DNA of 64,000 nucleotides from a virus. The DNA lies in IMG/VR virus record IMGVR_UViG_3300034072_001093, positions 1-64,000 of that record; one strand, written 5' to 3'. Shown here piece by piece: positions 31,868 to 53,574 of this stretch (position 1 is its first letter; every line of letters begins with the position of its first letter). Under the pieces are notes generated by a model. That model saw only the letters and a list, made by a program, of their open reading frames with translations. It did no database searches and had not been told where the DNA came from. The position numbers and the translations under genes were made by a program.

Positions 31868-32440
31868 TCAAGCTGCTTGGGCTTCTCGGCGTCTGCGGCG
31901 GTTGATGTGCAGGATCGAGAGCTTCATGATGGGGCTATGGTCGAACTGTCCACGCATGACAGCAGCGGTCAGATTGCTATCCATGATGGCAGCAACTTCC
32001 TGGCGTGCTTCCACCAGCACCGGGTCAACTCCGATCAGAGCCAATTCAGGGTGAAGCTCGATCGCCCGTTCGCGGAACTCCCGAAGACGAGCAAGCTCGT
32101 CGTCGTCGGTCGGCTGCTCAGCAGGGGTTTCTTGGATAGCGGGCTCGTCAACGGGAGCCTTGGTAACAGCAGGGAGATCCTCGACGCTGTAGACCACAGG
32201 GAGGAACGAGAATTGTTCTTCGGTGCCGACCCAGGACAGAGTGTGGGCTCGGCCGAAGGTTGGCGGAACGGCTTTAGTCTTTTTGACCAAGTGGCTCGCT
32301 GCCAGGCGGTCGATAATGGCGTGCAGCGCGCCATACTGGTCCCAGCCCAGGTGAGCCTTTAGGTCACGGACGCAGGTTTCCGGATTGCTGCGAATGAATT
32401 TCGCGATTTCGAGACTGAATTTCGTGGGACGACGCATCAT
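31868..32440 (-). CDS. Hypothetical protein with N-terminal winged-HTH-like segment
   Basis: AAGGAG SD before ATG 32440. EIAKFIRSNP...VRDLKAHLG...IIDRLAASHLV has a wHTH pattern. Confidence 0.6.
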   Translation of the reverse strand: MMRRPTKFSLEIAKFIRSNPETCVRDLKAHLGWDQYGALHAIIDRLAASHLVKKTKAVPPTFGRAHTLSWVGTEEQFSFLPVVYSVEDLPAVTKAPVDEPAIQETPAEQPTDDDELARLREFRERAIELHPELALIGVDPVLVEARQEVAAIMDSNLTAAVMRGQFDHSPIMKLSILHINRRRRREAQAA

Positions 32441-37545: not shown

Positions 37546-38555
37546 TTGTAGCGATCCTTTTGGGTGCAGGCGTCGAAGGCCGGACAATAGTCGCAGCGCT
37601 TGGGAGCACCTGGGACCTCGATGACGACGCCCTGCCCGCCCTGATCATTTAGGTGGGCATAGGCTTCAGCAGCGGAGTCGAAGTTTTTGGTGGAGCGGCC
37701 GTCGGTCTTCGCCGGGTTCTTGTAATATTTGAACTTCGGGTCAGACTGCCACAGCTCCTCGGGGGTGCACTCGGGCAGCTCGTGCTCGGGCACCTTGCGG
37801 AATTTCTCGATCAGCCGGATCTTCTCGCGGATCCAGGCTTCGACCTCATCGGTCGACAGGAGCTGGATCTGCTTCTGCTCAACACGGCGCTGAGGATAGG
37901 CCTTGTTGGTGATCGCATCGATCTTCTTCCAGTCGGTGAAGACGAAGTTGATGTTGCCATAATCCTCGGTGATCCGGGGACGGAAACGGGTTTCCGGCGA
38001 CAGGCTGATGTCCGAGTTGCCCTGGGCATCGAGCCAGCGGTAGATCGACATCTGCAGCTGGAAGTCGCTGGTCTTGCCGCCAGAGACCCAGCTGTAGGCC
38101 GAGGTGCTCTTGGTGTCGTTGACGATGCCGTCGGTGATGGCATCGAACTTCCCGCCGATGATGTAATTGCCGAAGCGACGGAACATCCGCTGTTCCAGAT
38201 AGACCGGAATGGGGTCCTTCATGGCATCGAGCTGAGCGTCGGTCGGGTTGATGAGAACCCGATCGATGACGCCCTCAGGGTAGCCGAGCTTGGCAAGATT
38301 GCGGCGATAGCCCTTGAGCCAGGCTTTCTCCATGGAGTCATGGATGGCGTGGCCATAGGCGCTGGCGATGAGATCGGCGACGTCCAGAGGGATCTTCTGG
38401 CTCGGGTGGATACGGCTCGGCAGCAGGATATGCCGCAGGGGCTTCATCAGGCCGGTGACGGAGATGTAGTCGGGCTGGTCGATGTGGTCGTATTCATCGT
38501 GGACAAGCCAGACAGCGAGAGCGAGCGGAATACCGCTTGTATTGGTGATGGTCAT
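37542..38555 (-). CDS. PD-(D/E)XK exonuclease (N4 gp42-like)
   Basis: GKFD...DTKST and QMSIY motifs, with a C-terminal CxxCx5C cluster. Confidence 0.85.
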   Translation of the reverse strand: MTITNTSGIPLALAVWLVHDEYDHIDQPDYISVTGLMKPLRHILLPSRIHPSQKIPLDVADLIASAYGHAIHDSMEKAWLKGYRRNLAKLGYPEGVIDRVLINPTDAQLDAMKDPIPVYLEQRMFRRFGNYIIGGKFDAITDGIVNDTKSTSAYSWVSGGKTSDFQLQMSIYRWLDAQGNSDISLSPETRFRPRITEDYGNINFVFTDWKKIDAITNKAYPQRRVEQKQIQLLSTDEVEAWIREKIRLIEKFRKVPEHELPECTPEELWQSDPKFKYYKNPAKTDGRSTKNFDSAAEAYAHLNDQGGQGVVIEVPGAPKRCDYCPAFDACTQKDRYK

Positions 38556-38574
38556 GGTTCATTCCTGGGTTTCG

Positions 38575-38795
38575 CGTATGGGGCTGCCAGACCGTTGGCC
38601 CGGTCACAGCAGCCCCGAGGACTTAATGGTCCCGGAGGGGGAGCTCGAGTTGGTCCTCGTGCTCTTCCCGCTCCATAAGGATGCTAGGCATAGCGATGTC
38701 CTCTCACGCAATGGCGCAGAGCGAGGCTCTCTCTCCAGACAGCGCCGATGAACAGGAGGCGGATTCCTCCTGTCCCCAGAGAGCTTGGTGTCTGA
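38575..38795 (-). ncRNA. Structured intergenic leader RNA candidate containing a 22-aa ORF (38623-38691)
   Basis: At least four stems plus a possible pseudoknot in 220 nt. See findings. Confidence 0.45.
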
Positions 38796-39137
38796 TCAGT
38801 TGAGCTGGGAGAGGTCGTAGGGCGGCCGTTCCTGGAGCTTGGTGCCTTCGGGCTGCTTCTGGAACTCGGCCTGGCTCATGTGGCCCAGGTAGACGACGTT
38901 CACGAGAACGACGTCGGCAACGATGATCGAGGGGTCTTCCATGCGGCCATGGAAGTTGAGCTGCAGAGCCTGCTGGGCACGACCGATGGCGCTGACCGGG
39001 AAGGTCTTCTCGTCACGGCTGACGACGGCATTGAGCAGCGTGCTGCCAATGGTTTCAGGCTGATCGTCCGTGGCGGGCTTGGCGAACTTCACCTCGCCGC
39101 AGACGAGGTAATAGTGATGCTTCTGGAATTTGGACAT
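38796..39137 (-). CDS. Conserved N4-like hypothetical protein downstream of DNA polymerase
   Basis: AGGA SD. Motifs AQQALQ and YLGHMSxxEF. Confidence 0.7.
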   Translation of the reverse strand: MSKFQKHHYYLVCGEVKFAKPATDDQPETIGSTLLNAVVSRDEKTFPVSAIGRAQQALQLNFHGRMEDPSIIVADVVLVNVVYLGHMSQAEFQKQPEGTKLQERPPYDLSQLN

Positions 39138-39233
39138 GGCTTGGTTCCTGTCTGCAGCCCCTTCCGGGGAGGAAAGGGCTGCTGGTCTAGACATTGGGGG
39201 ATCTGGGTTTGGGTCTCATGTCGAGAGAAATAG

Positions 39234-39261
39234 ACATTAGCCGGAGAGGCCTGTTCGTCAA
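39234..39261 (-). promoter_or_regulatory. Sigma70-like promoter candidate for the replication operon
   Basis: TTGACG-16 bp-TAATGT (GCTAAT) on the minus strand in an AT-rich intergenic region. Confidence 0.4.
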
Positions 39262-39328
39262 TCCCTAAATGAGAATAATGGCAGTGTGCATTTATGTAAA
39301 CACACACTATGTTGACATTTGATAAGAC

Positions 39329-41992
39329 TTAGGCAACCGCGCTCACGATTGCTTCAGTAATATCATCCGCCGTTGCGTCGTTCGCTATTTCAATTTCTTT
39401 GCTCCAATCAGGATAGAAGATGGACAGAGCCCCACCAAGCTTCACTTTATCGTGAGCTATATCTGGGTGGTCTTGCCATCTGACGGCTTGAACGAGGTGT
39501 TTGTTGGTGTAGAGCACTGGCTCCATGCAATCCCGAATGAGGAAATATCCCGCATCGTGGATCTGAGAGCATGGTCTGATGTCCAGACGGTGTTCACTCT
39601 TTCGGACTTTGCCCATGAACTCTGAGCCCGCTCGGGAATTGAGCAGACACCAGCTTTGTCCGAAGGCATTGCCTGCAGATCGGGCTTCTGCTTCTGCTTC
39701 GAATGGGGTCTTCCGGTTACCCCGGATGACCTGCTTCAGCAGCGGCGTGCGGACACGAAGGCCAAAGGCCACCGTGACATAGCCGGTCTTGCTCGCCTCC
39801 TGGATCTTGTTCCAGATCCATTCGTCGCTGACTTTGTAGAGCTCATGGTAGCGGGTCTCGATCGCGATCGCTTGTTCCTTGTTGAGGCCCGTCTGTTCGA
39901 CGATCCCTTTCCAGGTGCCACCATAGGTGAGCAGGAAGGTCGGAACCTTGCTCTCCTGCCGTTCGACAGGATAGGCTTTGGCGATCGAGTTGATGCTCAC
40001 CACCGAGTTGGGATCAATGCCCTCCATGCGATATCCGAAATAGGAGAACGCTCGGAGGCAATGACCATCGTATCCATCCGTGTAGACCTTAAGTTTCTGA
40101 GGGTCCTTTGTGGTGAGAGCCGAGATCCTGTCTTCGAGGGAATCGAAGTCCAGCCCCGCAAAAATCCACCCAGGTGGTGCGACGAAGCAGCTCTTTATGA
40201 GCTTGCCCAGGGCGAGCTTGCCCTTCTTGATGTACGGCTCCAGTATATGTCCGAACCTGTCGATCATTGCCTGCGAGACCGCCATGAAGATGTTGGACGG
40301 CAGGTTCTGCAGGTTGGGATCGGAGCTGCTGAGGCGGCCCGAGATCGTGCCTCCCAGGTTGAAGTTCCCGAACAGATAATGCCATCCATCGGGTCCCTCA
40401 AACGCACCCTTGAAAGCCGGGATGAACGAGGTCAGCAGCTTGTTGATGGCCTTGAACTCGATCAGAGCTTCGAGGAACTCCAGCACCTCTGGCTCAGTGG
40501 TGTGGTTCTTCAGAGCCTTGAGGGTGTCGCCGTCGGTGGCTGGCAGCTTGGTGTCCGTCCTGGCGATTACGGGCAGACCGAGAACCTCGTAGAGCAGCTT
40601 CTGGAGCTGGGGCGGCGAGTTGGGATTGAAGACCTCCTTTCCGTCGGCCGCGGTAACCCGTTTCTTCTTGAGCTCGCTGTTCCGCTTGATTGCCCAGGCC
40701 TCGTTGAGCTTGGTGGTGAACTCGGCGATGATGGCTGAGGAGTTCATGACCTGGACCGAGTGGTCCTCATAGGCCTGCAACACCTCTTCAACTTCGAGGA
40801 CACGATCCATCTTGAGGGGCATGCCGGTCAGCTGCATCTGGATGATGTCCAGCGTGGCAGGCTTGAAGACCGTCTCGTAAATGTCGAGCTGCTGATCGGC
40901 CACCATGGTATCCCAGTGCTTGTCCAGGGTGAACCAGGTGGAGAGACCATCGACCAGATTGTATTCCAGCAGTTTCGGCAGCGGAATGTTGGTGATGTCC
41001 TTGATGTCATCCTGCGCCCAGTTGCCGGAGAACTCCTGCGCCTGGGTTTTGAGGCTGAGATCGTTGCCCGCCGTGCTGTTGGTGGCGAGATAGGTGATCA
41101 GCTTGGTGCAGTCCCAGTTCCTGAGCATGACCTCCATGCCTTCCAGTAGCCCCTCGGTGTCGAGGATGTGGTCCATGAAGAGCTGGTAGATCAGGATGTA
41201 GACGTCGAAGCTGATCGAGTGATAGATCGCCTTCTGAGTGAACGCCTCGAAGAAAGCCTTCAGCAGCGCCCTCACCGGCTCGTTGCGGACCTGGCGGCCG
41301 AACGGAGCTTCGGTGGCTCCAGCGATGGGCTCATAGTCCACCGCGAAGGCAATCCCTTCGTGCTGGTTCCAGCACATGGTAATGGTGCCGATCCCTGCTG
41401 TCGGGTGTTTCAGGCTGAAGGTCTCGATGTCGATCGTCAGAGGCGTGTCGAGATCGAGCAGCTTTTGCAGCCAGGCATGGATCTCCTCGTAGGTCTGGGG
41501 ATATTCAGCGAACCGGATGATCCCTTTCCCTGGCTCCTGGTAGCAGCCGACACGGTGAGCTGTGAGGGCCTGCATACCCTGCTGGATCTGCTGGGTGATC
41601 TTGTCCGGATCGTAAAAGATCGATCGGTAATTGGGCACGTACACGACCTTGAAATCCCCGAACGGGGAGTCGAGCACGTAGCCCATGTTCGGCTCGACCT
41701 TGCGGACGCCGGCCAGGACTTTGAAATAGTCACCTTGGGCACAGAGGACATACTTCACGCCCATGTCAGTGAGGACAGGAGCAAGCTCCTCCTCTACATA
41801 GGCCTTCATCTCGCCGACCGGGGTCTTCTTCTTGTCGGGCGACATGAAGAGGTCGATCACGAGAACGTCATCCGGGTTTACAGCCCCGTCGGATAAATAG
41901 GCTTTCTGGATCTCCTTCGTCATGATGGTGGGAGTGAGCAGAGCAACCTCGTAGCTGCTCTTCTCTTCCGAGCTGTAATAGGCGTACTTCAT
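39329..41992 (-). CDS. Family A DNA polymerase (N4 gp39-like)
   Basis: Exonuclease DIET and YNLVD, GRLSSSDPNLQN, motif A DFDSLE, motif B RQESKVPTFLLTYG and motif C QIHDA. Confidence 0.95.
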   Translation of the reverse strand: MKYAYYSSEEKSSYEVALLTPTIMTKEIQKAYLSDGAVNPDDVLVIDLFMSPDKKKTPVGEMKAYVEEELAPVLTDMGVKYVLCAQGDYFKVLAGVRKVEPNMGYVLDSPFGDFKVVYVPNYRSIFYDPDKITQQIQQGMQALTAHRVGCYQEPGKGIIRFAEYPQTYEEIHAWLQKLLDLDTPLTIDIETFSLKHPTAGIGTITMCWNQHEGIAFAVDYEPIAGATEAPFGRQVRNEPVRALLKAFFEAFTQKAIYHSISFDVYILIYQLFMDHILDTEGLLEGMEVMLRNWDCTKLITYLATNSTAGNDLSLKTQAQEFSGNWAQDDIKDITNIPLPKLLEYNLVDGLSTWFTLDKHWDTMVADQQLDIYETVFKPATLDIIQMQLTGMPLKMDRVLEVEEVLQAYEDHSVQVMNSSAIIAEFTTKLNEAWAIKRNSELKKKRVTAADGKEVFNPNSPPQLQKLLYEVLGLPVIARTDTKLPATDGDTLKALKNHTTEPEVLEFLEALIEFKAINKLLTSFIPAFKGAFEGPDGWHYLFGNFNLGGTISGRLSSSDPNLQNLPSNIFMAVSQAMIDRFGHILEPYIKKGKLALGKLIKSCFVAPPGWIFAGLDFDSLEDRISALTTKDPQKLKVYTDGYDGHCLRAFSYFGYRMEGIDPNSVVSINSIAKAYPVERQESKVPTFLLTYGGTWKGIVEQTGLNKEQAIAIETRYHELYKVSDEWIWNKIQEASKTGYVTVAFGLRVRTPLLKQVIRGNRKTPFEAEAEARSAGNAFGQSWCLLNSRAGSEFMGKVRKSEHRLDIRPCSQIHDAGYFLIRDCMEPVLYTNKHLVQAVRWQDHPDIAHDKVKLGGALSIFYPDWSKEIEIANDATADDITEAIVSAVA

Positions 41993-42001
41993 CAGATTTC
42001 C

Positions 42002-42547
42002 TCAGTAAATCAGGCGGGTAGCGGAATAGGCTTCCATCTTCTCTTTGGTCTTCTCGAACTGGATCCAGGCAGGAGAACCAGGCTCCAGACAGAATCCCTC
42101 TTCGCCGGTTCGCTCCAATCCCTTGAAGATTTCAAGGGCCGGGATCACACACTCGGGAAGAGAATTCCTGAGAGCGAGGAGGTCGGGTTCGACGGCTTTT
42201 ACAAGGCCGACAATTCCCTGCCGGATGGCCTTGCGGTCTTCCAGGAGCAGGGCATGATCAGCCAGGAGTTCCTGCATCTCTCCCTTGAGCGAGAGATGCA
42301 GGCCCCTCAAAGGTTGCCCGCGAACAGGGCAATCCGGATGCCGGTAGGCAACCCCATCGTAGAGGAATCCCCAGCGCCTCTGGCCCTCGGTCTTCTCCAT
42401 GATGTTGTCATGCTTGAGGACCAGGGCGTAGACCCGCTTGAGCCAGTGTTCGCTCTCATGGACGAACAGGTAGCGATCAATGGCACCGGTTACGACGTCC
42501 ACGAATGCGTTCCTGGCTCTCTGGGCAGTCATGTTGACAGGCGGCAT
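42002..42547 (-). CDS. N4 gp38-like hypothetical protein
   Basis: Lies between helicase and polymerase. GFLYDGxxY and LRNSLPEC motifs. Confidence 0.7.
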   Translation of the reverse strand: MPPVNMTAQRARNAFVDVVTGAIDRYLFVHESEHWLKRVYALVLKHDNIMEKTEGQRRWGFLYDGVAYRHPDCPVRGQPLRGLHLSLKGEMQELLADHALLLEDRKAIRQGIVGLVKAVEPDLLALRNSLPECVIPALEIFKGLERTGEEGFCLEPGSPAWIQFEKTKEKMEAYSATRLIY

Positions 42548-42557
42548 GGGGGTTCTC

Positions 42558-43889
42558 CTAGTGGATCAGCCCGCCAAAGCGTGGAGCCAGGTCTCCGAAA
42601 AGGAAGACCCGCTCCCTGGCTCTCGAGAAAGCCACGTAGAGCATACGAGCTGCTTGGTTGGGGTTGGTACAGGTGCTGATGTTGCCGAGGTCGATGACCG
42701 CGGTTTCGTAGGTCGAGCCCTGGGCCTTGTAGACCGTGCCTGCGTCGAGGGGACGGAGGTCCGGATAACCCTGCTTCAGGTGGAAGTGGGTCGGCCAGTC
42801 CTGCTTCTTGGCGAAATACTGGATGCAGGCACGAAGGTGGTCCATGTCCATGGCAATGGGCACGTTCGTGTGAGTACCGCCGCTGGCAGTGGCGATCGTT
42901 GCAAGCCGGTAATCTAGGGTCACGCCATCCGGCAGCTGGGCGGTCTTGATGCCGGTGTCATAGGACAGGATCTTAACCCCTGCCTCGACCGAGAGCAGGC
43001 CATTGCGAAGCTGGACAGCGTTGTTGTTGACCAGGAACTCGTTGGTGGTGAGTTCAGCCGGCAGGTTGCGGATCTGCCGGATATAGTCGTTGAATAGGCT
43101 CACCCGCTCGTTGGTGTAAGCCAGGATGCGGTGATCACGGGTCGGCGAAGAGAAGTTGTGGTCGAGGACCGCCTGCAGATCTTCATCGTCGCAGTGATCG
43201 ATGACGCCGGGGACGATCTTGATCGGCTTGAAGATGCCGGTCTCGACGGTCTCACGGAGCTGGTTGCAGACCTCCATCAGGGCTGTCTGGTTCGAGTTCC
43301 GCATCTGCTGCTTGAGCTCGACGAAGGGCTTGTTGCCCAGGAACACAGGCGAGATCCTTTCCATGACGGGAGCCAGCTGGCAGTGATCACCAACATAGAC
43401 GATCTTGCAGTTCAGGGTGCCCTGGTGGATCATGTTGTAGAGACCGCTGTCGATCATCGAACATTCGTCGACGAACAGGATCTTGTTCTCGTGGACCTTG
43501 AAATCCTTGCGCTTGGCGAGCTTGGATTTTCCGGTGTTGTAGTCCTCGCGGACGTTGAGCCGGAGGAAGGATGCCAGTGTCTGGGAAGGCCGCTGAGTGG
43601 CAACAGCCAGCACTTCGGCCGCCTTGTTGGTGGTCGCCGTCATGTGAACTTCGTCATAGACAGGCGGCATGCCCATCAGCTGGCAGGTCTGCTGGTAGCG
43701 GGGCATGATGTCATCGATCATCAGGCTCATGGTGAACGTCTTGCCGACGCCACCCGGGCCAGACATGATCATCTCTTTCTCATTCGAGAAGAGGAAGTTG
43801 AAGAACATGTCGGCAGCTGCCTGCTGGTCTTCGTTGGGCGCAGGCTTCTTGGCCTGGCGAGCAGAGATGCTCGACGTGATCTGGTTCAT
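42558..43889 (-). CDS. SF1B (Dda/RecD-like) DNA helicase
   Basis: Motifs GPGGVGKT, DECSM, GDHCQL, KAQGST and YVAFSRA. Confidence 0.92.
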   Translation of the reverse strand: MNQITSSISARQAKKPAPNEDQQAAADMFFNFLFSNEKEMIMSGPGGVGKTFTMSLMIDDIMPRYQQTCQLMGMPPVYDEVHMTATTNKAAEVLAVATQRPSQTLASFLRLNVREDYNTGKSKLAKRKDFKVHENKILFVDECSMIDSGLYNMIHQGTLNCKIVYVGDHCQLAPVMERISPVFLGNKPFVELKQQMRNSNQTALMEVCNQLRETVETGIFKPIKIVPGVIDHCDDEDLQAVLDHNFSSPTRDHRILAYTNERVSLFNDYIRQIRNLPAELTTNEFLVNNNAVQLRNGLLSVEAGVKILSYDTGIKTAQLPDGVTLDYRLATIATASGGTHTNVPIAMDMDHLRACIQYFAKKQDWPTHFHLKQGYPDLRPLDAGTVYKAQGSTYETAVIDLGNISTCTNPNQAARMLYVAFSRARERVFLFGDLAPRFGGLIH

Positions 43890-43953
43890 GGGTTTTTCCG
43901 TTATGCTGCTGGGGCTGCGTCCCCCCAGAAAAGAGGGGACGCATCCATGGAGA

Positions 43954-45612
43954 TCAGGCAATCTTGGTCTTGATCACCGCGATTTCCTGCGGGGTGAAGC
44001 TGAGCTTCTCCCAGGAAATCTTGACCTTCTGCTTGTGGTTCAGGAGAGCTGCCCACTGCTGCTTCTCGTAGAGAGCACGAGCGGTGGCCTGACGGGGGCC
44101 GAGGCCAGCCATCGGGTCCTTCTTCGGCGGAGCGGTCTTGGTCGGAGCCTGGGCAACAGGACGCTGATGCAGGCTTTTGCGAGCGCCCATCTCGTCGATG
44201 AACGCCTTCAAGCCCTGATCAGTGATCGTCGGAAAGCCGAGCTTTTCCCAGGTCCTCTTGGTCCTGGCTCGAATGGCCAGCAGATCTTCGGCCGCTTGGG
44301 CGCGGACCTTGCTGTGGTTGGCACGGCTCTGCATCGTGTCGATCAGGCTCTGGATGGACTGCGCCTGGGTCATGCTGACCTTCTGCTCGGTGACCTGCTT
44401 GCTCAGAGCCGTCGGATCGACAGCCGGAGCAACAGGCTTCTTGGGATCGGAAAGGTCGATGGCTTCAGCTTCCTGGCTCGGCATTGCCACGGTGACGTCG
44501 GCTGCATTGGGGATGGACAGCGCTTTGGTCTCGAAAGACCCGCCCATTGCGGAGGTGATACGCACCTCCTCGATCGGCGGAGCGTGATGGCCGGCAATAG
44601 CCGCTGCGAGCAGCGTTTTGCCTTCAGGATGGTCGGTCATGGGTTTGCCTTGCTTGAGGCTCAGGAACATGTCGTCCGTGAGCTCGAAGATGATGTGGTA
44701 GCCAGCGACCCGCATTTTGTCGGGCTCGTTGTGGGGCACTGCGATGACGTCTTCGGGTGCAACCTTGCCAAGGGTGCATGCCGTGCCGGGGAAGGTGCGG
44801 AGATAGCCACGACGAGCGACATGGAGACCGGTGGAGCACTGGGTCCGACGGCTCGGGTCAATCAGCTTTTCGTCCATGCAGACGAAGCTGCCGACCCGCT
44901 GCACCACCCTGTTGGTGTGGCAGTCGACATAGGTGTGTTCACCGCGGCGGTTGAGCACCTTGTAGATGATGATTGAACCATCTTCAGCGATCGGCAGATC
45001 AGCCCGTTCCAGGAAGTGCATGAGCTCCTGGGCAGTGTGCTGACGCTTGGATGCGACGGTCGCCATACGAGCAAAGAATGCTTCCAGAGCCTTGGGCGAG
45101 CCCAATTTGTTGGCGTGGGCGATCTGGCGCTGCAATTTCTCTGCCCCCACAATGGGGGTATCGTTGACGACGGCAACGACGGTCTGGTCTTTGTCCAGCT
45201 CATCGTTGGTCATCGGCTCGGCATGGGCCATGATGTCAGCCAGAGCGGCATCGATCTTGGCCCGCTGGTCCGGGACAGCGCCCATGGCGATATTGGGCAC
45301 CATGGGGGCTTCCTCTGCGGGCTCGTCTTCGGAGCTGAACAGCTCCTTGATCTTGGCCTTCGCCACCCGGAAGAAGCGAACCAGGCCACCGGTGGATTTC
45401 TCGAAATCCTGGTAGTTGGTGGTGGGCGGAGTTTCCTCGATTGAGATGTCGACCTCGGCGACCTGACGAGCCAGGAGAGCATCCTTGGACTCGTCGATGA
45501 TGCGCTGAAGGCGGGGATCGCCCTGCTCGATGCGAGAGGTCTTGCCGTCCTCGTGGTAGAGGGTGAGGCAAACCTTATCGACCACCAGGGCAACGATGCG
45601 GAGTTTGGTCAT
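43954..45612 (-). CDS. rIIB: rIIB-like protein
   Basis: LPIAEDGSIIIYK, CSTGLHV and PEDVIAVP motifs. Follows rIIA. Confidence 0.88.
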   Translation of the reverse strand: MTKLRIVALVVDKVCLTLYHEDGKTSRIEQGDPRLQRIIDESKDALLARQVAEVDISIEETPPTTNYQDFEKSTGGLVRFFRVAKAKIKELFSSEDEPAEEAPMVPNIAMGAVPDQRAKIDAALADIMAHAEPMTNDELDKDQTVVAVVNDTPIVGAEKLQRQIAHANKLGSPKALEAFFARMATVASKRQHTAQELMHFLERADLPIAEDGSIIIYKVLNRRGEHTYVDCHTNRVVQRVGSFVCMDEKLIDPSRRTQCSTGLHVARRGYLRTFPGTACTLGKVAPEDVIAVPHNEPDKMRVAGYHIIFELTDDMFLSLKQGKPMTDHPEGKTLLAAAIAGHHAPPIEEVRITSAMGGSFETKALSIPNAADVTVAMPSQEAEAIDLSDPKKPVAPAVDPTALSKQVTEQKVSMTQAQSIQSLIDTMQSRANHSKVRAQAAEDLLAIRARTKRTWEKLGFPTITDQGLKAFIDEMGARKSLHQRPVAQAPTKTAPPKKDPMAGLGPRQATARALYEKQQWAALLNHKQKVKISWEKLSFTPQEIAVIKTKIA

Positions 45613-48032
45613 TTCTGGGTTTCCTTGGAATTGCTCGCCACTGCCAGCTTGATCATTTCGATCAGAGCGGGCCTGGTCGTGGGCGAGTAGGGTTCGGGGG
45701 AGTGGAGAATGCCGACGAGCGGGTAGATGTCGAAGACATCCATGAGCTTGTTGCAGGACATCCTGATGATGGTGCTCACGAAAGCACTGTCCAGTTTCAC
45801 CTTCTGGGCAGCGTCCTCGATAGCAGTGCTATCGAAGAACGTTGCCTTGGTCAGAGACCGGGCAATGCTGATGATGTTCCAGTCCTTTTCGGTGAGGTCC
45901 TGGACCACTCCGAGGGTAGACTGGAGCTCGGGAATCCTCTCGACGGCGTTCATGAAAAACACGAACACGCGGGGAAGTTTGATGCGGGTGAAATCCCGAG
46001 CCAGGTGAGCCCGGATACGAGGGTTGGTCTCATATTCCTTGACGATCAGTTCAATCAGGTGGGCGTTGAGGCTCTTGGCTCCTTTCTTGATGTAGGCCTC
46101 TTCCTGGGTCACGCTGATGGTCAGACCGACCTTGTCAGCGAACATGTCCATGATGGCCTTGCTCGCGTCTTCGTTGAGGTAGTCGGTCAGCTCAGTGCCT
46201 TCCTTGCCCCGCTTGACGGTTAGAACGAACTCCGGTTTCTCAGACCGGGCTTTGACGCTCTCACTGCATGCGGGATCTTCCGGCATCGAGAAGCTGCGTT
46301 TCCAGACGCGGACACCGGACAGAAGGGGCAGGCCCTTCTTGACGTTCCGTTCGGCCCGGATGATGGGCGTAACCACATCCGGTTCTTCCCAGGGTTGAAC
46401 GATCGTCATGTCGAGGACGGTATACCCCAGGCTCTCGAAGGCTTCTCTGACCTTCGGGGTCTTGGTGTAGGTCCTCGGGACGATGAAGGTGATGACGCCG
46501 TGCATGGCAGCATCAATCCCCTCCATTTCAGGGAAGCGCTTGATGCGGTTCCTGATGTCCTCGGGGGTGAAGCCGATAGCTGCAATCTTGCGACATACAG
46601 CAATGCCCTGCTCCTGCCAGAAGTTGTCGTGCAGCCGCAGCTGGTCGAACGAATGCTGACAGGGCCGGTAGGAGTCACGCAGCCAGATCGACAGACGCTT
46701 GATCGGGAGATCCCGGCTCGAAATCGCGTCCTTCACCGGTTGAATGACCTGGCTCATGAACCAGTAATTCACTGCCGGAGTGGCGGACGTTTTCAGCTTC
46801 CTGTCGATCAGAAGAGCATGGCGGAAGGATTTCAGGAGGTCCTTGTCGCCAATCCCCTGGTGCTGCAGAACACGAGCACGCAGGAAGAGCTCGTCATCTG
46901 CCATGTTGCCGTAAGTGCCGCCGTGAAGCCTGTAGCGAGCGAGACGCTGAACCAGGTGGTCAGGCTTGAACAGGATCGACCTATTCGGCACCGAGACAGG
47001 CATGGGATGCCGGGTATCGAAGACTTGCCACGCCTTCACGGGAGTGTCGAACTCGTTGAAAAAGCTGCGAAAAGCAACGTTGGCTTTATGCTCAAGATTG
47101 GCTTCAGCCTGATCGAGGCATTCCGTGATGAGCTTCTTGATCGTGGCGATCGTCATCGGGGTGAGAGACAGACTTTCCCGGCTCGGAGTGATGCTGAGGC
47201 TGTCAGCCGGAGCCTGGAAAATGATCGAGAGTCTCTCGTTTCGGCCAGCGACCTTATCGACGAACTTCGACGCACGGTTGAGCTCGGCCTCATACTCGGC
47301 AGACCGAGGAACAGGGTAGATCACGTTGCCCAGGCGGATCTGAATCTTGTTGTTGTAATGGAGGGGCACCAGAAGGAAGCCCATCTCGGCCTTCGAGAAG
47401 GGATAGGTGTTGAGCTGCTTGCCGTTGAGCTCGACCAGCATTTCGCCGTTGCGGACAACCTCGTGAATGAGACTCTCAAACCGACTGCGGTCCTGGCTGG
47501 TCTTCAGGGGTATGTTGACCTCGACGCCGGTCTCTTCCGTGGGGAAGGACGCGATCGGCAAGATGCTGGGCTTGCCGTTCACCTCGGCCGAGGACTTCGA
47601 CATGTTGTAGATGGTCCGCTCACCATCATGGTAGCTGGTGACCTGGAAGTGGTCGGTGAACGAAAACGGTGCCTTGCAGCCCAGGCCGAAGCCACCGGTC
47701 ACGAATTTGTTGGCCCGCTTGGTGGAGCCGCCATAGGTGCCGAACAGCGGCTTGATCATGTTCTTGGCGATGCCGTTGCCGAAGTCGCGGAAGATGACGG
47801 CTTCGTTGGTCAGGGTGACCTGCAGGGGCACGTTCTGCTTGCCGGCCTCGATGTGAGCATCCCACCCATTGCAGAGGGTCTCACGAACGACAGCCAGAGG
47901 CTGGTTCGAGTAGAGAGCGCCGGAGAGGACCATCATGAGGGTGGGGTCGGAGTCGTCGAAGGTGAACTCCATGGCCTCGCCACCGCCGATAACGGCGTGG
48001 GTAACGTGGTCTTCGTGATGTGCGACTTTCAT
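45609..48032 (-). CDS. rIIA: rIIA-like protein (GHKL/HATPase N-terminal domain)
   Basis: RETLCNGWDAH, RDFGNGI, STK and GGFGLGCK. Confidence 0.88.
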   Translation of the reverse strand: MKVAHHEDHVTHAVIGGGEAMEFTFDDSDPTLMMVLSGALYSNQPLAVVRETLCNGWDAHIEAGKQNVPLQVTLTNEAVIFRDFGNGIAKNMIKPLFGTYGGSTKRANKFVTGGFGLGCKAPFSFTDHFQVTSYHDGERTIYNMSKSSAEVNGKPSILPIASFPTEETGVEVNIPLKTSQDRSRFESLIHEVVRNGEMLVELNGKQLNTYPFSKAEMGFLLVPLHYNNKIQIRLGNVIYPVPRSAEYEAELNRASKFVDKVAGRNERLSIIFQAPADSLSITPSRESLSLTPMTIATIKKLITECLDQAEANLEHKANVAFRSFFNEFDTPVKAWQVFDTRHPMPVSVPNRSILFKPDHLVQRLARYRLHGGTYGNMADDELFLRARVLQHQGIGDKDLLKSFRHALLIDRKLKTSATPAVNYWFMSQVIQPVKDAISSRDLPIKRLSIWLRDSYRPCQHSFDQLRLHDNFWQEQGIAVCRKIAAIGFTPEDIRNRIKRFPEMEGIDAAMHGVITFIVPRTYTKTPKVREAFESLGYTVLDMTIVQPWEEPDVVTPIIRAERNVKKGLPLLSGVRVWKRSFSMPEDPACSESVKARSEKPEFVLTVKRGKEGTELTDYLNEDASKAIMDMFADKVGLTISVTQEEAYIKKGAKSLNAHLIELIVKEYETNPRIRAHLARDFTRIKLPRVFVFFMNAVERIPELQSTLGVVQDLTEKDWNIISIARSLTKATFFDSTAIEDAAQKVKLDSAFVSTIIRMSCNKLMDVFDIYPLVGILHSPEPYSPTTRPALIEMIKLAVASNSKETQK

Positions 48033-48128
48033 GATGGCTTCCTTGGTTCTGGGTTTAGGACGCACAGGGCCAGCCCACCCCCGGAGGGGGTTGGCGGCTC
48101 CTGTGCTGTCTGGTCTGATGGTTAGGGG

Positions 48129-48575
48129 TTAGACAAAGTGGTCGAGGAAGGGCGGCGAGTAGGCCGGCCCCTTCGTAATCTTGCCGTTCTCGTCGAAGAT
48201 GGGATTGCCCTCTTCGTCGAACTTCGACCAGTTGGATCGATCGACCTCATCGAGTGCCTCCTCGATGTGCAACCCCAGAAAAACCCCCACACCGGTAGCC
48301 GTCACGACCTGATCGCAGAGAGAGTCGAGAAACTCCTTGCGGTCATCGGTCATGATCGGAGTGTCAGAGGTTTTCAGGTGCTTGGCCAGGGCCTCCATGG
48401 CTTCCTTGGCCTGCTGGCGCATGACCTCGCCGAAGCCGGATGTCGATCGATAGGCGTCGAGCATCTCGGCCACCTCTTCGAAGTGGACGCCCATCTGCAC
48501 ACGGATGTGCTTGGGCAGAGGCTCGGGCCTGGCCTTTCGGAACCAGTTGGCGATGCTGGAAATGGTGTCGTTCAT
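48129..48575 (-). CDS. MazG-like NTP pyrophosphohydrolase
   Basis: EEVAE, DSLCD, EVDRSNWSK and GKITKGPxY. Confidence 0.85.
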   Translation of the reverse strand: MNDTISSIANWFRKARPEPLPKHIRVQMGVHFEEVAEMLDAYRSTSGFGEVMRQQAKEAMEALAKHLKTSDTPIMTDDRKEFLDSLCDQVVTATGVGVFLGLHIEEALDEVDRSNWSKFDEEGNPIFDENGKITKGPAYSPPFLDHFV

Positions 48576-48590
48576 TTGGTCTGGGTTCTT

Positions 48591-48899
48591 TCAGTTCGGG
48601 CGTGCAGCCCGGTATGCGTCGTTGATGAGGCCAGCGATAAAACGCCGAACGTCTCCCCGAATGCCGATCTCGTCGGCAACCCAGTTCACCTGGTTCTCGG
48701 GCAGCTGCTCGAAGATCTCCTCCATGAATGATCTGCGAGTATCGTTCGGCTTGATGCCCATGCGGGTCAGCCGGTGAGAGACGCTGGTGTGGTGCATCCC
48801 CAGCTTCCGTGCGATGGAAGCCGCGGAGAACCCCAAAGCGTTCATCCGGAGAATCTCCTCCTTGGTGTCGTAGAATTGTTCTGTTTTAGAAGCTGGCAT
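48591..48899 (-). CDS. HTH DNA-binding protein
   Basis: GFSAASIARKLGMHHTSVSHRL forms an HTH. Confidence 0.8.
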   Translation of the reverse strand: MPASKTEQFYDTKEEILRMNALGFSAASIARKLGMHHTSVSHRLTRMGIKPNDTRRSFMEEIFEQLPENQVNWVADEIGIRGDVRRFIAGLINDAYRAARPN

Positions 48900-48929
48900 T
48901 GTGCGTGTCCCATTATCTTTATCGTTCGA

Positions 48930-49200
48930 TGCAGACGTGCAGGATCGTCCGGAAAAGGTTCCGAAGTTGAGACGATCCTGCGGGATCAGCTAATTTTGCT
49001 ATGCTGGAAAAGCATGGTCAGTGCTTTCTCCTGGCTCAAGCAGACAGCTTCGGGTCGCGCACCCCAAGGGCACCACCCGAAGTAACAATCGCCAACCAAA
49101 TACCCTGAGGGGGAGCGGATACTGGGATTGGTGAGACTGTCACCCTTAGCCCCGGCAGAGGCCACGTTCTGTCTACTAAATTGATGTTTGGTCTGGGTTT
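48930..49200 (-). ncRNA. Structured leader RNA candidate with a 9-codon uORF (48986-49015)
   Basis: Multi-branch closing stem 49039-49047/49169-49177, inner stem CTTCGGGT/ACCCGAAG, and hairpin GCAGGATCGTC/GACGATCCTGC. Confidence 0.4.
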
Positions 49201-49286
49201 ATGAGAAGTTGGTCGCTTCTATCCTATGATAGGGCAAGCCTGAATCTGGTGGCAAGCACTATTTAGAGGTATGTCGACATTTCGTC

Positions 49287-49751
49287 TCAAATCTCCAGGA
49301 GCTTCCGGTGCTGGATCAGGTAGGAAGTTGCTCTTTCGAGCAAAGCCAGATCGTCTTTGAAGAAGCCCAGGCCGCGGTTACAGGAGCTGCAAAGCATGCC
49401 CCTGAAAGTGTGGGTCTGGTGACAATGATCGATCGAAAGCTCTTTCCACCTACCATCTCCAGCAGCCCCACAAAGGTCACAAAGACCGTTATGGGCGAGA
49501 AGCTGCTGAATAAGCTCTGGGGTCGCTTTGACGCCGATCCGACGAAGACGGTATCTCAGGCGACCCTCCGGATTGCCGTGATACCTATCGGAGGATTGAG
49601 CGTTGAGCTTGTCCTTGTTGGCCTGGCGATAACTCCGCATATACGCCTGATGCTGAGCCAGCTTATCGGGATCCGCATTACGCTTTGCCCTCGCTCTGGC
49701 GCATGCTTCGAGCTTCTTAGCAGAAGTTTTGTTAACCCTGGTCACGGTCAA
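49287..49751 (-). CDS. Endonuclease VII-type HNH (putative free-standing homing endonuclease)
   Basis: CxxC...IDHCH...RGMLCSSCNRGLG. Overlaps the thyX stop. Confidence 0.85.
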   Translation of the reverse strand: MTVTRVNKTSAKKLEACARARAKRNADPDKLAQHQAYMRSYRQANKDKLNAQSSDRYHGNPEGRLRYRLRRIGVKATPELIQQLLAHNGLCDLCGAAGDGRWKELSIDHCHQTHTFRGMLCSSCNRGLGFFKDDLALLERATSYLIQHRKLLEI

Positions 49752-50644
49752 ATCTCCAGAGTTTTGCGAAACTGAATCCAGCCCGTGAAGTTCCCGTGGA
49801 GGTCAGATCTTGCCCATTCATAGGTTCCGTCTGGACGAGGGTCTAAAGCCTCATCAGGTGTTGCCTGATGCTCTGCAGGTGAGGCATGCAGGGGCTTGGA
49901 GCCAACGAGGCGATCGAACAGCTTCAGGTCTTCCTCGACGGTGGTCTGGCGGCCGTCATGGGTCAGGTAGCTGACACGAGCACAGCGAGCGGTGGAGACC
50001 TTCTTGAGGATGTCGTTTATCTGGCCAGGCATGGGAACGACACGCATGACGCCGTTCCCGGTAATCCGGTCCTGGGCTGCCTTGACGTCATCGCGGGTGA
50101 TGTAAGGCAGATGCCAGTCTTCCGGAGCCAGGTGCTGAGGATGGCTGCTGCACAGAGCGTTGAGCATTTCCAGAGCCAGGACCTTCATCTCAGGCTGGGC
50201 ATCGGGGTGAGCACGCAGCTCGAAGAAGTTCTCCCAGTCCGTCGCCGTGACGACGACGTTGATGTGTGCCCATGGTTCGAGGATGCGATTGGCAATCTGC
50301 TTGTGGAGACCGAGACGAACCATCTCTTCTGCAGCTCTGATGCAGCAATCGAGAGCATCGTGCCACTCTGCGTTGGCATATGCCAGGTCATCTGCGGTGA
50401 GTTCAGCTCCAGCCTGCATCCCAGGCTTATTGCTGCCCCAGAAGACAGGCATGGCAGGATCCCGGCGAAGATCTTCGATCATTCGTTCGACAGGGATAGC
50501 TCGACTGGAGCTTGCGTTCCGCGAAAAGACCCTGTGTGTCATAAACTCCGCATGGATGAACCTCGGGTAGCGTAGCTGCATGGTTGTGAGGCGGATTCCA
50601 GCAGGTGAGATGCTGTCCGCGATCACTTTGGCATAGATTGTCAT
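49748..50644 (-). CDS. thyX: Flavin-dependent thymidylate synthase
   Basis: THRVFSRNASSSRAIP (ThyX motif), KQIANR, CARVSY and HASPAEH. Confidence 0.92.
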   Translation of the reverse strand: MTIYAKVIADSISPAGIRLTTMQLRYPRFIHAEFMTHRVFSRNASSSRAIPVERMIEDLRRDPAMPVFWGSNKPGMQAGAELTADDLAYANAEWHDALDCCIRAAEEMVRLGLHKQIANRILEPWAHINVVVTATDWENFFELRAHPDAQPEMKVLALEMLNALCSSHPQHLAPEDWHLPYITRDDVKAAQDRITGNGVMRVVPMPGQINDILKKVSTARCARVSYLTHDGRQTTVEEDLKLFDRLVGSKPLHASPAEHQATPDEALDPRPDGTYEWARSDLHGNFTGWIQFRKTLEI

Positions 50645-50826
50645 GGGTCTGTGTCTTTCTGGGTTTGTGAAGTCCGAGACACTCTGGAGAGAGCCTCGGT
50701 TGGTCGACTTCAAGGGGGTCAGATGGTGCACTCACGGTTTACAGTGTTAGGGTAAACCTGAGGAAAGCTGGGGGTTTGCTGGGGATATGGTTTACAAGAA
50801 AATCCTTATTTTTCAATGATACGCAA

Positions 50827-50874
50827 GGAATCATAATCCGTAGGTCGGGGGTTCAAGTCCCTCCTCCGCTACCA
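50827..50874 (+). other. attP core: 3' half of an elongator tRNA-Met (CAT)
   Basis: GGA-ATCATAA-TCC anticodon arm, GGGGG-TTCAAGT-CCCTC T arm, CTCCGCT-A-CCA end. No 5' half or D arm upstream. About 60 bp from the integrase stop. Confidence 0.85.
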
Positions 50875-50932
50875 AAAAATCCCGGTAAAACAAAGGTTTA
50901 GAGGAGCGGCAAATTTCAGATGAAACCAAAGT

Positions 50933-52012
50933 TTACACGCCTTTGTAAACTTTTCCGCGCTGGGTCTTCTGGCCCATGCCGCGCATCTTTTGCGCCAAGT
51001 GCATGATGACCCGTGCGTTATCGACATATCTGAGCCGTACAGCGGACACTTTCTCCGAACTCCAACCAAGAATCTTGGCGATGTCATCGTCGTTGAGGCC
51101 GTTCTGCACCAGCTTAGTGGCGAAAGTGCCACGAAGGTCGTGAAGAACACGATCGAACCCTGGCGGAAACGATTTCCGGAGCATGCAAGACAGCCCTTGC
51201 TTGGTCCAAGCGAACCCGCGGCTGTTTTTCAGCACGGTTCCGGTCTGCTCTCTGCCCTTCAACCATGCCCTGAGTTCAGGGAGCATGGGGATGATGGCCT
51301 CTGTTCCTCGCTTCTCGGTGCGTTCGACCCAGACAAAATTCTGGTCGAGGTTCACATTACCCCACTCAAGCTTGACCAGATCTCCGAGACGGAGACCGGT
51401 GAGGCTGGCGAGAACGATGGCGTCCATGACGTGCGTCGGGATCTTGGCATTGTGAATGGCGTCCCAGTGACGCTCCTCCCAGATCTCGTCGGCCTTGTTG
51501 ACGCGGTGGAGCTTGGAGATGCCGTCGGCACAGTTGTGGTCGACCATGGCGTTCTCCCTGCCCCAGTTGAGCAGGGTGCTCATCATGACGACACCCTTGT
51601 CGGCCGAGCGGGGTTGGTCCCTCCACTGGTTCCGCCAGCCGTGGACCTTGCCTCGCATCTTGGCATCGTTGAAGAGCTCAAGGGGCATCTTCCCGAAGTG
51701 CTCGTCGATCCGGTTGAGCCAGAGACGGTAGTCCTTTTTGGTGGCCGGCTTCAGCCGACCAAACTCGGGGCTGTCCTGGTAGGCTGTAATGAGGGCACTC
51801 ATTCTGACGGTCTTCTCGTCTCGATCTTTGTTCATGGCCGCGAGCTGCTTGGCGAGCAGCTTTTGGGTGATAACGGGGGGGACGTGATCATCCGTCTGGA
51901 TGAGTGGTCCCCCCCGCCAGGCATACGAATAGTACCGATCGCCCCATCTGAGGCGTTTGCGGACAATGTGTATCCCTATCACGACCTTAGTCCTGCGCCG
52001 CGAAGTAGGCAT
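50933..52012 (-). CDS. int: Tyrosine integrase (start uncertain: ATG 52012 or GTG 51982)
   Basis: Catalytic residues R (TGLRLGD), K (TEKRG), HxxR (HDLRGT), W (LGW) and Y (RYV), with an N-terminal arm-binding-like segment. Confidence 0.92.
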   Translation of the reverse strand: MPTSRRRTKVVIGIHIVRKRLRWGDRYYSYAWRGGPLIQTDDHVPPVITQKLLAKQLAAMNKDRDEKTVRMSALITAYQDSPEFGRLKPATKKDYRLWLNRIDEHFGKMPLELFNDAKMRGKVHGWRNQWRDQPRSADKGVVMMSTLLNWGRENAMVDHNCADGISKLHRVNKADEIWEERHWDAIHNAKIPTHVMDAIVLASLTGLRLGDLVKLEWGNVNLDQNFVWVERTEKRGTEAIIPMLPELRAWLKGREQTGTVLKNSRGFAWTKQGLSCMLRKSFPPGFDRVLHDLRGTFATKLVQNGLNDDDIAKILGWSSEKVSAVRLRYVDNARVIMHLAQKMRGMGQKTQRGKVYKGV

Positions 52013-52196
52013 CGAATCTGTCCCGTAGCGTGGTCTCCTTGGCTGCCGGGGGCAGCTGCGGAGATGGTAAGCATGAAACAGTGACTCCATCTTCCCGGAT
52101 GTCAACGGAGTTGGGCATGAAGCCGTATTCCCGCTTGAGCATGTCGAGGATGGATCGCACCTCGGTTAGAGGCACGGTACGCCGCTTTGTAGTCAC
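51987..52196 (-). CDS. Excisionase/recombination-directionality-factor candidate
   Basis: 69-aa protein with a GGGAGG SD, immediately upstream of and overlapping int. Confidence 0.45.
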   Translation of the reverse strand: MTTKRRTVPLTEVRSILDMLKREYGFMPNSVDIREDGVTVSCLPSPQLPPAAKETTLRDRFDAYFAAQD

Positions 52197-52340
52197 GAAT
52201 CCTCCCTTGGTCCCGTGAAGCTGAGCCTGACCTGCTCAGCCGCACAGAGATGATTCTGTTGATGGTCATGGTTTGGCACCGAAGTGCCTGGTCTGGGTTT
52301 TTACGGTGCTCTGTAAGGGGGGGCGAGCACTGTGAGAGGG

Positions 52341-52372
52341 CATATCCCGGATGGTTTCCAACATGTCAACAT
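52341..52372 (-). promoter_or_regulatory. Sigma70-like promoter for xis-int overlapped by palindrome ATGTTGACAT
   Basis: TTGACA (52369-52364)-17 bp-GATATG (52346-52341). The palindrome spans 52363-52372. Confidence 0.6.
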
Positions 52373-52409
52373 AGCCTGAAAAGATAACATCGAGCCCCTT
52401 CGGGTAAAC

Positions 52410-52802
52410 TTAACATCGGTTGTTTTTGGGTAAGCCCTCCTGTCCGATATGCTGCTGCATGTTGCTGCAGGTTCGAGCTATGAGATGGCATTGGTAAACC
52501 AGAGGTAACGCATCCCAGACGTCTGATAACCAAATGAAAATGCGCTGTTTTACCGTGACATCTTCAAATTGGGTCTTATCTGGGAGTGAAATGCCCGAAG
52601 GTGTTTCCACAGGATTATTCGATCCATTTTGGTTGTTGTTTGCCGCCTGCAGGAGGTCATAAAACTCCTGCAGTGTGGCCTGGAGGCCACTCTTATCGAC
52701 CGGAATTTCGATCTTGTCGAAGTCCGGATTGATCTTGGCTGCGTCTGCCTGGGTGGTGAGGACGTGGATTCGCTGCCCATCGTTTGCGGTGTAGAAGATC
52801 AT
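52410..52802 (-). CDS. Hypothetical protein
   Basis: ATGA overlap with the deaminase stop. TQADA...IPVDKSGL motif and an AT-rich 3' half. Confidence 0.6.
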   Translation of the reverse strand: MIFYTANDGQRIHVLTTQADAAKINPDFDKIEIPVDKSGLQATLQEFYDLLQAANNNQNGSNNPVETPSGISLPDKTQFEDVTVKQRIFIWLSDVWDALPLVYQCHLIARTCSNMQQHIGQEGLPKNNRC

Positions 52803-53389
52803 GCCTGGTTCCTCAGCTGGCGAGTTGCCTCGCGTCTGCGTTCGACATTGGCGTTGTTGGCCTCAAGGAGGCCTCGGACACGCCACTCGAGAAACTGGAT
52901 TCGATCCTTGAGCTTCTCTTGATTGGGCGGAGGTGAGCCAGGGAGAACCCTGACAGTCACCCCACCTTCGAACAGGATCTCGGCCGCCTGTCTCATGCTC
53001 TCTCCCCATCGGGGATCGTCATGGTCGAATGGATAGACCACCACGCAGCTGATCCCAGCCTGAACGATGTCGCCTGCACAGTTCGCACAAGGGAACCAGG
53101 GAATATACATGGTGCATCCCCTGGTGCTGGCTCCCATGCGTGCTGCATTGAGGATAGCATTCTCCTCGGCATGCTTGGTGAAGGCGTATTTGGTCGGCCT
53201 GGCGTGGCGCGATTCGATTGTGTCATCCACGCCCCTGGGGAAGCCGTTCCAGCCTGAGCTGACCTGCTCCTGGTCAGGGCCGACGATGACAGCACCAACC
53301 TGCCGGCCACGGTCCTTGGACCATTCGGCATAGTGCAGGGCGAGCGACATCCATCGCTCGTCCCACATGCGCTGCTTCGAGGCGATCAT
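52799..53389 (-). CDS. dCMP deaminase
   Basis: HAEENA and PCxxC zinc motifs, SKD..RQVGAVIV and GWNGFP. Confidence 0.92.
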   Translation of the reverse strand: MIASKQRMWDERWMSLALHYAEWSKDRGRQVGAVIVGPDQEQVSSGWNGFPRGVDDTIESRHARPTKYAFTKHAEENAILNAARMGASTRGCTMYIPWFPCANCAGDIVQAGISCVVVYPFDHDDPRWGESMRQAAEILFEGGVTVRVLPGSPPPNQEKLKDRIQFLEWRVRGLLEANNANVERRREATRQLRNQA

Positions 53390-53574
53390 GATGCCTCCCC
53401 GAAATACAGCTTCCGGCAGGTCTTGCAGGTGACTTTGCCGAAATTTTCCTGGGAGGCGAAATAGTAGCTGCCTTCCAGGGGCTGACCACAAAGGGTGGTT
53501 GTGGGGTTGACTCGGTTACGGTCGGCGATGTGGCGAGCCTTGCTGTCGTCGAGCAGGGTATCGATTGCGGGCAT
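53386..53574 (-). CDS. Small Cys/His (zinc-ribbon-like) protein
   Basis: H...TLCG...VTCKTC pattern with an AGGAG SD. Confidence 0.6.
   Translation of the reverse strand: MPAIDTLLDDSKARHIADRNRVNPTTTLCGQPLEGSYYFASQENFGKVTCKTCRKLYFGEAS

Follow-up and report, generated by a model that had tools for sequence, protein, structure and literature searches.

The N4-like phage and its palindromic motif

The 64,000-nt stretch of DNA analysed here (positions 1 to 64,000 of the IMG/VR virus record IMGVR_UViG_3300034072_001093, hereafter the window) carries three copies of the palindrome ATGTYRACAT in its early and middle gene arm. The window is part of a 75,061-bp contig, which represents a circular assembly since its ends overlap by 127 bp. 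Its gene content is that of an N4-like phage (Schitoviridae) which, unlike N4 itself, has a tyrosine integrase and an attP consisting of a tRNA fragment. Among phage records, only N4-like DNA polymerase and helicase genes gave nucleotide matches, and tblastn searches identified homologues of N4 gp1, gp2, gp15, gp16, gp30, gp35, gp36, gp40, gp46 and gp47. The late genes are located on the + strand up to position 31788, with the virion RNA polymerase (vRNAP) encoded by an open reading frame (ORF) of 3,581 aa at 21043-31788, and the early and middle genes run on the - strand from approximately 66.6 kb down to 31868. The genome has a GC content of 58%, and intergenic DNA makes up about 3.2 kb, or approximately 4% of it.

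Two replication operons and an integrase gene lie behind the three motif copies, referred to as sites 1, 2 and 3. The operon behind site 1 contains gp40-like, exonuclease, primase, Sak4-like and SSB genes, and the operon behind site 2 contains a structured leader followed by a gp35-like helix-turn-helix (HTH) gene and MazG-like, rIIA/B-like, helicase and DNA polymerase genes; the exonuclease, primase and SSB are of the N4 type. An initial annotation of this DNA had named a nuclease-primase-SSB block, an HTH-MazG-rII-helicase-polymerase block and an integrase, and these labels were essentially right, the integrase being recognized by Pfam.

Site 1 (39309-39318, - strand) reads ATGTTGACAT on the top strand and AA-ATGTCAACAT-AG on the gene strand, and starts 10 nt past the stop codon of the DNA polymerase gene (39329-39331). 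Site 2 (49271-49280, - strand) reads AA-ATGTCGACAT-AC on the gene strand, is a perfect 10-bp palindrome, and starts 6 nt past the stop codon of an Endonuclease VII (EndoVII)-like gene (49287-49289). Site 3 (52363-52372), to which no strand was assigned, reads AC-ATGTCAACAT-AG on the + strand and CT-ATGTTGACAT-GT on the - strand, which is that of the genes, and starts 37 nt past the stop of ORF130. All three copies are intergenic, each at the head of its gap shortly past the stop of the preceding - strand gene, and the dyad symmetry is perfect (4+4) in every one. Judged by its flanks, site 3 has the opposite orientation to the other two sites, the 12-mer ATGTCAACATAG lying on the + strand. The positions given in the initial annotation were confirmed, as was its observation of a 12-mer common to sites 1 and 3 in inverted orientation (CTATGTTGACAT), and the whole contig holds no further copy. 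The gaps had also been described as rare and AT-rich, which holds as well: their GC content is 43% at site 1, 51% at site 2 and 54% at site 3, all AT-richer than the genome, and the motif itself is 60-70% AT.

A genome-wide count against expectation, which had been proposed as a check, gave a clear excess. The expected number of copies is 0.12 according to dinucleotide shuffles, with 0 of 100 shuffles reaching three, and 0.15 under an order-2 Markov model. With all three copies in the approximately 4% of DNA that is non-coding, chance is therefore unlikely, even allowing for the 256 possible 4+YR+4 palindrome families that were implicitly tested. When one mismatch was allowed, no extra intergenic copy was found in the genome. 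ATGTYRACAT is almost certainly a functional recognition site, whether its reader is a regulator protein or the second RNA polymerase of the phage.

Several common explanations for a short palindrome were considered and rejected. The core hexamer GTYRAC occurs 76 times genome-wide against 77 +/- 8 expected, and being neither avoided nor enriched, it gives no sign of a restriction-site effect of the HincII type. A hairpin promoter needs a stem of at least 4-6 bp and a loop of 3-4 nt. Folded as a single strand, the motif is no more stable than shuffled sequence (minimum free energy 0 to -1.6 kcal/mol), and its arms are unpaired in every fold; since no hairpin forms, the motif would act as duplex DNA. 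LexA consensus sequences have the forms CTGT-N8-ACAG, GTTC-N7-GTTC and GAAC-N4-GTTC, from which ATGT-N2-ACAT differs in spacing and arms. The motif is not known to match a LexA box, and the host SOS-type repressor suggested in the initial annotation was rejected on comparison with these consensus sequences. Sites for IHF or integrase arm binding were discarded, as the candidate arm-type repeats near attP have another sequence, GTAAACC. A general intergenic enrichment of the half-site ATGTC/GACAT was also dismissed, its density being 3.4 per kb in intergenic DNA and 2.6 per kb genome-wide.

Probable host-type promoters and comparison with relatives

Downstream of site 1, a consensus scan called a sigma70-type promoter, TTTACA-17-TATTCT (P1; 39272..39300, - strand), which begins 8 nt from the motif. 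It is followed by a tandem promoter, TTGACG-16-TAATGT (P2; 39234..39261, - strand). Both were aligned across the window phage and the relatives L081, L003 and L001, whose polymerase identity ranges from 63 to 86%. In this alignment the P1 -35 element GTTTACA is invariant, with a TAnnnT -10 element at 16-17 nt. A P2-type pair, TTGAC(G/T)-16-TAnnnN, follows P1 in all four phages, its TTGAC invariant and the spacers differing freely; the L001 counterpart, TTGACT-16-TAGAGT, was itself called by the consensus scan. The -10 element of P2 is overlapped by a wider inverted repeat of the motif half-site, ATGTC-N10-GACAT (39218-39237, - strand), and L081 keeps TGTC-N10-GACA at this place.

At site 2, the scan called TTGCCA-18-TATCAT (49226..49255, - strand), 15 nt downstream of the motif. 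With a score of 10/12, this is the best match in the 16 kb scanned, and both hexamers are identical in L081, where 4 of the 18 spacer bases differ. In independent scans of L081, L003 and L001, the homologous promoters are the top sense-strand matches, and in L003 the homologous promoter is the only match in 13 kb. Because independent scans find the homologous places in each relative, the sigma70-type promoters predicted at sites 1 and 2 are very probably real. In N4, the operons that lie behind them are transcribed by the phage RNAPII.

Site 3 lies in a different promoter context. Two candidates on the - strand, both read by eye within 52341..52408, were considered: TTTACC-16-TATCTT (52408..52381), which would place site 3 at approximately +2 to +11, 8 nt downstream, and TTGACA (52369..52364) with a weak -10 element, GGATAT or GATATG, at 16-17 nt, in which site 3 would lie over the -35 element. 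Neither was called by the consensus scan. The initial annotation had reported sigma70-like elements at all three sites; this stands for sites 1 and 2, and at site 3 the scan did not call the TTGACA, whose -10 partner is weak.

Between the site-2 promoter and the HTH gene lies a conserved, structured leader of 300 nt (48900..49200, - strand), which starts with AAACCCAGACC. Its identity to L081 is 92-100%, with flanking genes that are only about 60% identical. Part of the leader is also kept in L001, and no Rfam family matched it.

L081, an 11.9-kb Joint Genome Institute (JGI) contig, was reached through a protein search match (helicase, 71% identical) and covers the homologues of sites 1 and 2. 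It is the closest relative found, with 86% identity in the polymerase, 98% in EndoVII, 93% in the exonuclease and 61% in the HTH protein. The motif ATGTYRACAT is absent from its 11.9 kb. It reads TTGTCATCATAT at aligned site 1 and ATGTCATCATAT at aligned site 2, and the 11-mer TGTCATCATAT occurs at both of these homologous positions and nowhere else in the contig. As one common variant is present at both places, the two sites have changed in concert, and this comparison provides the best argument that the motif is functional. Such a concerted variant is the expected signature of a cis element that would be read by a factor with a different specificity in each phage, and lineage-specific constraint on the motif is thus supported by the comparison. 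The anticipated conservation in relatives was found in this form only: L081 has a common variant at both homologous sites, but the exact motif and its 4+4 symmetry are not kept.

Around site 2, the window and L081 are 92-100% identical over approximately 900 nt, comprising the EndoVII gene and the 300-nt leader; precisely across the motif and promoter, identity falls to 72-80%. The EndoVII-like gene (window 49300-49800) is 96-100% identical to L081 at the DNA level over its first 300 nt or so (49476-49775) and 88-100% identical beyond. Elsewhere, the window and L081 are 60-86% identical at the protein level, and the gene is absent from L001. Such a pattern suggests a nuclease gene that was exchanged recently and may be mobile.

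These comparisons bear on two explanations in which no phage-specific reader takes part. In the first, the motif would have no function, having recurred by chance or been left behind when AT-rich intergenic segments recombined. The roughly 256 palindrome families implicitly tested lend this some weight, and so does the mosaic nature of the genome around site 2, where the EndoVII block reaches 100% identity to L081. It is nevertheless highly improbable, given the like position of all three intergenic copies past stop codons, the restriction of the exact 11-mer to the two homologous positions in L081, and the count of GTYRAC, which is neither avoided nor enriched. In the second, a host protein such as a global regulator or nucleoid protein would bind the motif, or it would be an AT-rich upstream promoter element. 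At two sites the motif does lie upstream of host-type promoters in AT-rich surroundings. However, the two phages carry different variants, each internally consistent, within near-identical flanks (92-100% around site 2), the motif is not known to match UP-element or LexA consensus sequences, and site 3 would fall inside the core promoter or downstream of it, all of which makes this explanation quite improbable.

Beyond these relatives, the searches gave few close matches. A metagenome scan with the window helicase gave no match, and viral contig scans with the integrase, the dCMP deaminase and the conserved leader pattern gave no further close relatives; none covering the site-3 gap was found in those with the integrase and the leader pattern. 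A genome contig scan gave only distant prophages, with at most 61% polymerase identity. A more distant set comprised 80 N4-like loci from IMG/VR with at most 66% polymerase identity, of which a single one contains the exact motif, at an unrelated place. Variants approximately 92-97% identical to 38500-53500 that span all three sites were seen in sequencing runs from sludge and drinking water and in one further coded run; in one variant strain, the entire site-1 gap (39218-39358) is replaced or too diverged for alignment. No RNA sequencing run was listed with this phage.

Candidate readers and possible function of the motif

The first gene after site 2 encodes a candidate binder, HTH102 (48591..48899, - strand). 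It is a homologue of N4 gp35 (41% identity, E 2e-23, tblastn) and belongs to phrog_6377. Pfam gave weak matches to HTH_38 and Sigma70_r4_2, and neighbours in the ESM Atlas carry HTH_7, HTH_23 or HTH_28; on these matches, the predicted fold is of the resolvase/homeodomain type of HTH. Its recognition helix reads HTSVSHRLTRM and that of L081 PTSISHALTRM, with three positions differing, including R to A. HTH102 is present in most relatives, including loci where no homologue of the window integrase was found.

The only other DNA-binding candidate among the early/middle-arm ORFs scanned is encoded at 31868..32440 (- strand) as the last gene of the SSB operon. Its product may have a winged-helix N-terminus, based on ESM Atlas leads with scores below 0.9; it gave no Pfam or PHROG match, and the gene has no promoter gap of its own. 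The 69-aa ORF, ORF130 and a 213-aa ORF also gave no Pfam or PHROG match.

The third candidate is the RNAPII machinery, which is encoded in full: RNAP2 matches phrog_2051 in a PHROG search, and tblastn gave matches to N4 gp1, gp2, gp15 and gp16. The gp2 homologue (35% identity to N4) and the gp1 homologue (25%, E 2e-6) are located at genome positions 63709-64167 and 65559-65846, respectively (- strand). Because both are present, the cofactor set for middle transcription is of the N4 type and not of the LUZ7/Drc type.

The reading that is tentatively preferred here is that of an operator-like site, at which a phage DNA-binding protein would modulate host-type promoters. A sequence-specific protein encoded by the phage would recognize a site of 11-13 bp with ATGTYRACAT as its core. 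Situated at the upstream edge of three early/middle-arm control regions, this site could modulate sigma70-type promoters used by the host RNA polymerase, two of the regions driving the replication operons and the third a 69-aa ORF and the integrase gene. At the integrase promoter, the site would overlap the core promoter, which would favour repression. In front of the replication operons, its position is upstream of the -35 element, where activation, anti-activation, or repression needing a second contact could be envisaged. The most likely binder would be the gp35-like HTH102, which is encoded directly downstream of site 2 and would then also regulate its own expression. The dyad symmetry, the inverted third copy, the adjoining host-type promoters and the adjacent HTH gene favour this reading. 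Since site 3 is inverted and still has a 12-mer in common with site 1, a symmetric operator comes naturally and a directional promoter is awkward.

The motif resembles the operators of the CI-Cro type from lambda, P22 and 434 in that one phage has several promoters with short dyad-symmetric sites, that one site would overlap the -35 element of a candidate promoter on the int side, and that specificity differs between close relatives, as with immunity types. It differs in that the site is only 10 bp long with half-sites 6 bp apart, that two sites lie upstream of the -35 element and not over the core promoter, and that no CI/Cro-like gene was found among the 45 early/middle-arm ORFs scanned, nor a divergent repressor/antirepressor pair. 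The phage is, moreover, N4-like and has its own early and middle RNA polymerases. T4 MotA boxes and class I activator sites are alike in that a phage-specified element beside sigma70 -10 and -35 elements redirects or modulates the host RNA polymerase, as the window motif would. MotA boxes, however, replace the -35 element at a fixed position, and the position of the window motif varies next to promoters that already have a good -35 element.

A number of observations weigh against the operator reading. The geometry of motif and promoter is inconsistent, with 8 and 15 nt to the -35 element at sites 1 and 2 and a predicted overlap at site 3, so that the motif centres lie near -49 and -57 at the first two sites and over the -35 element or at approximately +2 to +11 at the third. 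Such variable positions do not agree with a simple repressor or with a phase-dependent activator. A distance of only 6 bp between half-sites is also uncommon among HTH dimers. In L081, neither site keeps the inner dyad pair, and site 1 has lost the outermost pair as well; site 2 keeps three of the four dyad pairs (ATG-N4-CAT) and site 1 keeps two. The motif comparison rests on this one close relative, which covers sites 1 and 2, and the distant relatives show no motif common to the two homologous gaps. No domain of the XRE/CI/Cro type was found with Pfam in the 45 early/middle-arm ORFs scanned. N4 is strictly lytic, and as HTH102 is a homologue of its gp35 and is kept in relatives where no integrase was found, this protein is not specific to lysogeny.

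The initial annotation had gone further and proposed one dimeric regulator as a lysis-lysogeny switch, a special case of the operator reading. A shared cis element and an HTH gene after site 2 agree with this proposal, but because no CI/Cro-like repressor was found in the ORFs scanned, it is only partly supported and appears rather unlikely. HTH102 itself was dropped as the lysogeny repressor that had been suggested, being a gp35 homologue that occurs in relatives where no integrase homologue was found. A related and similarly unlikely idea is that a temperate N4-like phage is controlled by a circuit made up of the motif, the adjacent host-type promoters and the gp35-like HTH. Virion RNA polymerase is missing from a prophage, whose early and middle programme would thus be silent by default. 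In such a circuit, the clade would have put sigma70 promoters before the replication operons and int, and one phage regulator would gate all three. This would be, if true, the first cis-regulatory logic for lysogeny and induction in Schitoviridae.

Middle transcription provides another and equally natural explanation, absent from the initial annotation, in which the motif would be an N4-type middle promoter core that is read by the heterodimeric RNAPII, helped by homologues of gp1 and gp2. After infection, both replication operons and the unit of the 69-aa ORF and int would be transcribed from it in a rifampicin-resistant manner, and the sigma70 promoters would form a separate, host-dependent route. 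With homologues of N4 gp1, gp2, RNAP1 and RNAP2 encoded, all four protein components are at hand, and a complete machinery needs promoters somewhere. The N4 RNAPII promoter has been described as minimal and AT-rich, spanning -7 to +2, with a protein proposed to recognize it on duplex DNA (PMC4496689), and N4 middle promoter elements as AT-rich with a T start (PMC4496689, PMC9163698). The window motif is likewise short and AT-rich in a 58% GC genome, and its copies are found only in the arm of the middle genes, where they head three transcription units. Orientation with the genes is seen at sites 1 and 2 and for both L081 copies, and the phage-specific concerted change in L081 is compatible with a motif that co-evolves with a polymerase or cofactor of the phage. 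Candidate vRNAP promoters are, in addition, already accounted for by a separate early motif, CGCTTCGCTYCGTYTG, which has three copies in early-region gaps (window 61258-61273 and genome 64176-64191 and 65928-65943, all on the - strand). Its template strand contains GCGAAGC, a mini-hairpin with a GAA loop that resembles N4 early promoters, making these copies candidate vRNAP early promoters.

Other observations speak against a middle promoter. The flanks of site 3 orient the motif against the genes, no copy precedes the ATPase-vWA-deaminase, exonuclease-primase or SSB units, and the dyad symmetry would be a coincidence. Neither this symmetry nor the inverted copy is expected of N4 middle promoters, which were compared by description only, as the N4 sequence record contains no promoter annotation. 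In our own reading of the N4 sequence, its intergenic DNA has T-rich runs after terminators, which the motif does not resemble. The middle promoters of LUZ7 are GC-rich hairpins (PMC9163698), whereas the window motif does not fold: inverted repeats in the intergenic DNA of an N4-like phage are common to it and to the N4 vRNAP and LUZ7 RNAPII hairpin promoters, but ATGT-YR-ACAT cannot form the stem and loop that these need. Finally, distant relatives carry another recurrent sense-strand motif, TTTYYTGGKTC, at comparable positions. Taken together, a middle promoter is the main rival of the operator-like site and only somewhat less probable.

A broader form of this last motif, TTYYYTGGKTY, was observed on the sense strand 14-67 nt past stops, mostly of primase and polymerase genes, in many N4-like relatives, in whose intergenic DNA it is 5.5-fold enriched. 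In the window, TTTCTTGGTTC (35347-35357, - strand) occupies the loop of a long hairpin that follows the primase gene.

It has proved difficult to define the middle promoters of N4-like phages (PMC9163698), and N4-like phages carrying an integrase have been reported before (PMC10654107). In the literature, no account was found of how an N4-like phage that packages a vRNAP and has an integrase sets up or leaves lysogeny. The motif is short and precisely placed, a close relative provides a natural variant of it, and it has two concrete candidate readers, the gp35-like HTH or RNAPII with gp1 and gp2; either answer would fill a gap. The conserved host-type promoters before replication operons, which are transcribed by a phage polymerase in N4, may bear on the temperate lifestyle of the clade.

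The integrase region and other recurrent sequences

The first gene downstream of site 3 is the 69-aa ORF (51987-52196, - strand). The tyrosine integrase ORF follows at 50933-52105 (- strand; Pfam PF00589, E 1.7e-16), and its nearest relatives are found in phages of Alphaproteobacteria, which points to a host in this class. The attP core is a 48-nt stretch (50827..50874, + strand) identical to the 3' portion of a tRNA with a CAT anticodon and a CCA end. Many contigs from other metagenomes pass from this tRNA-like sequence into 5' halves of tRNA genes, which is what an attP core should show. Neither an Rfam nor a tRNA scan of the whole window gave a match. The core is flanked by three GTAAACC repeats, one of them inverted (window 50736-50795), and L001 has three copies of TGTAAACC around its own tRNA-like core. 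By their placement, both repeats are candidate arm-type sites of the integrase.

The sequence AAACCCAGA has 19 copies in the genome, always on the coding strand. In the window, it is located at 6124, 7579, 13845 and 21035 on the + strand and between 34399 and 62651 on the - strand, and three copies lie beyond the window. For most copies, an ATG follows within 0-20 nt; a Shine-Dalgarno sequence is usually lacking, and a hairpin often immediately precedes the copy. The sequence is also present in L081, L003 and L001 and may represent an unusual translation or leader signal.

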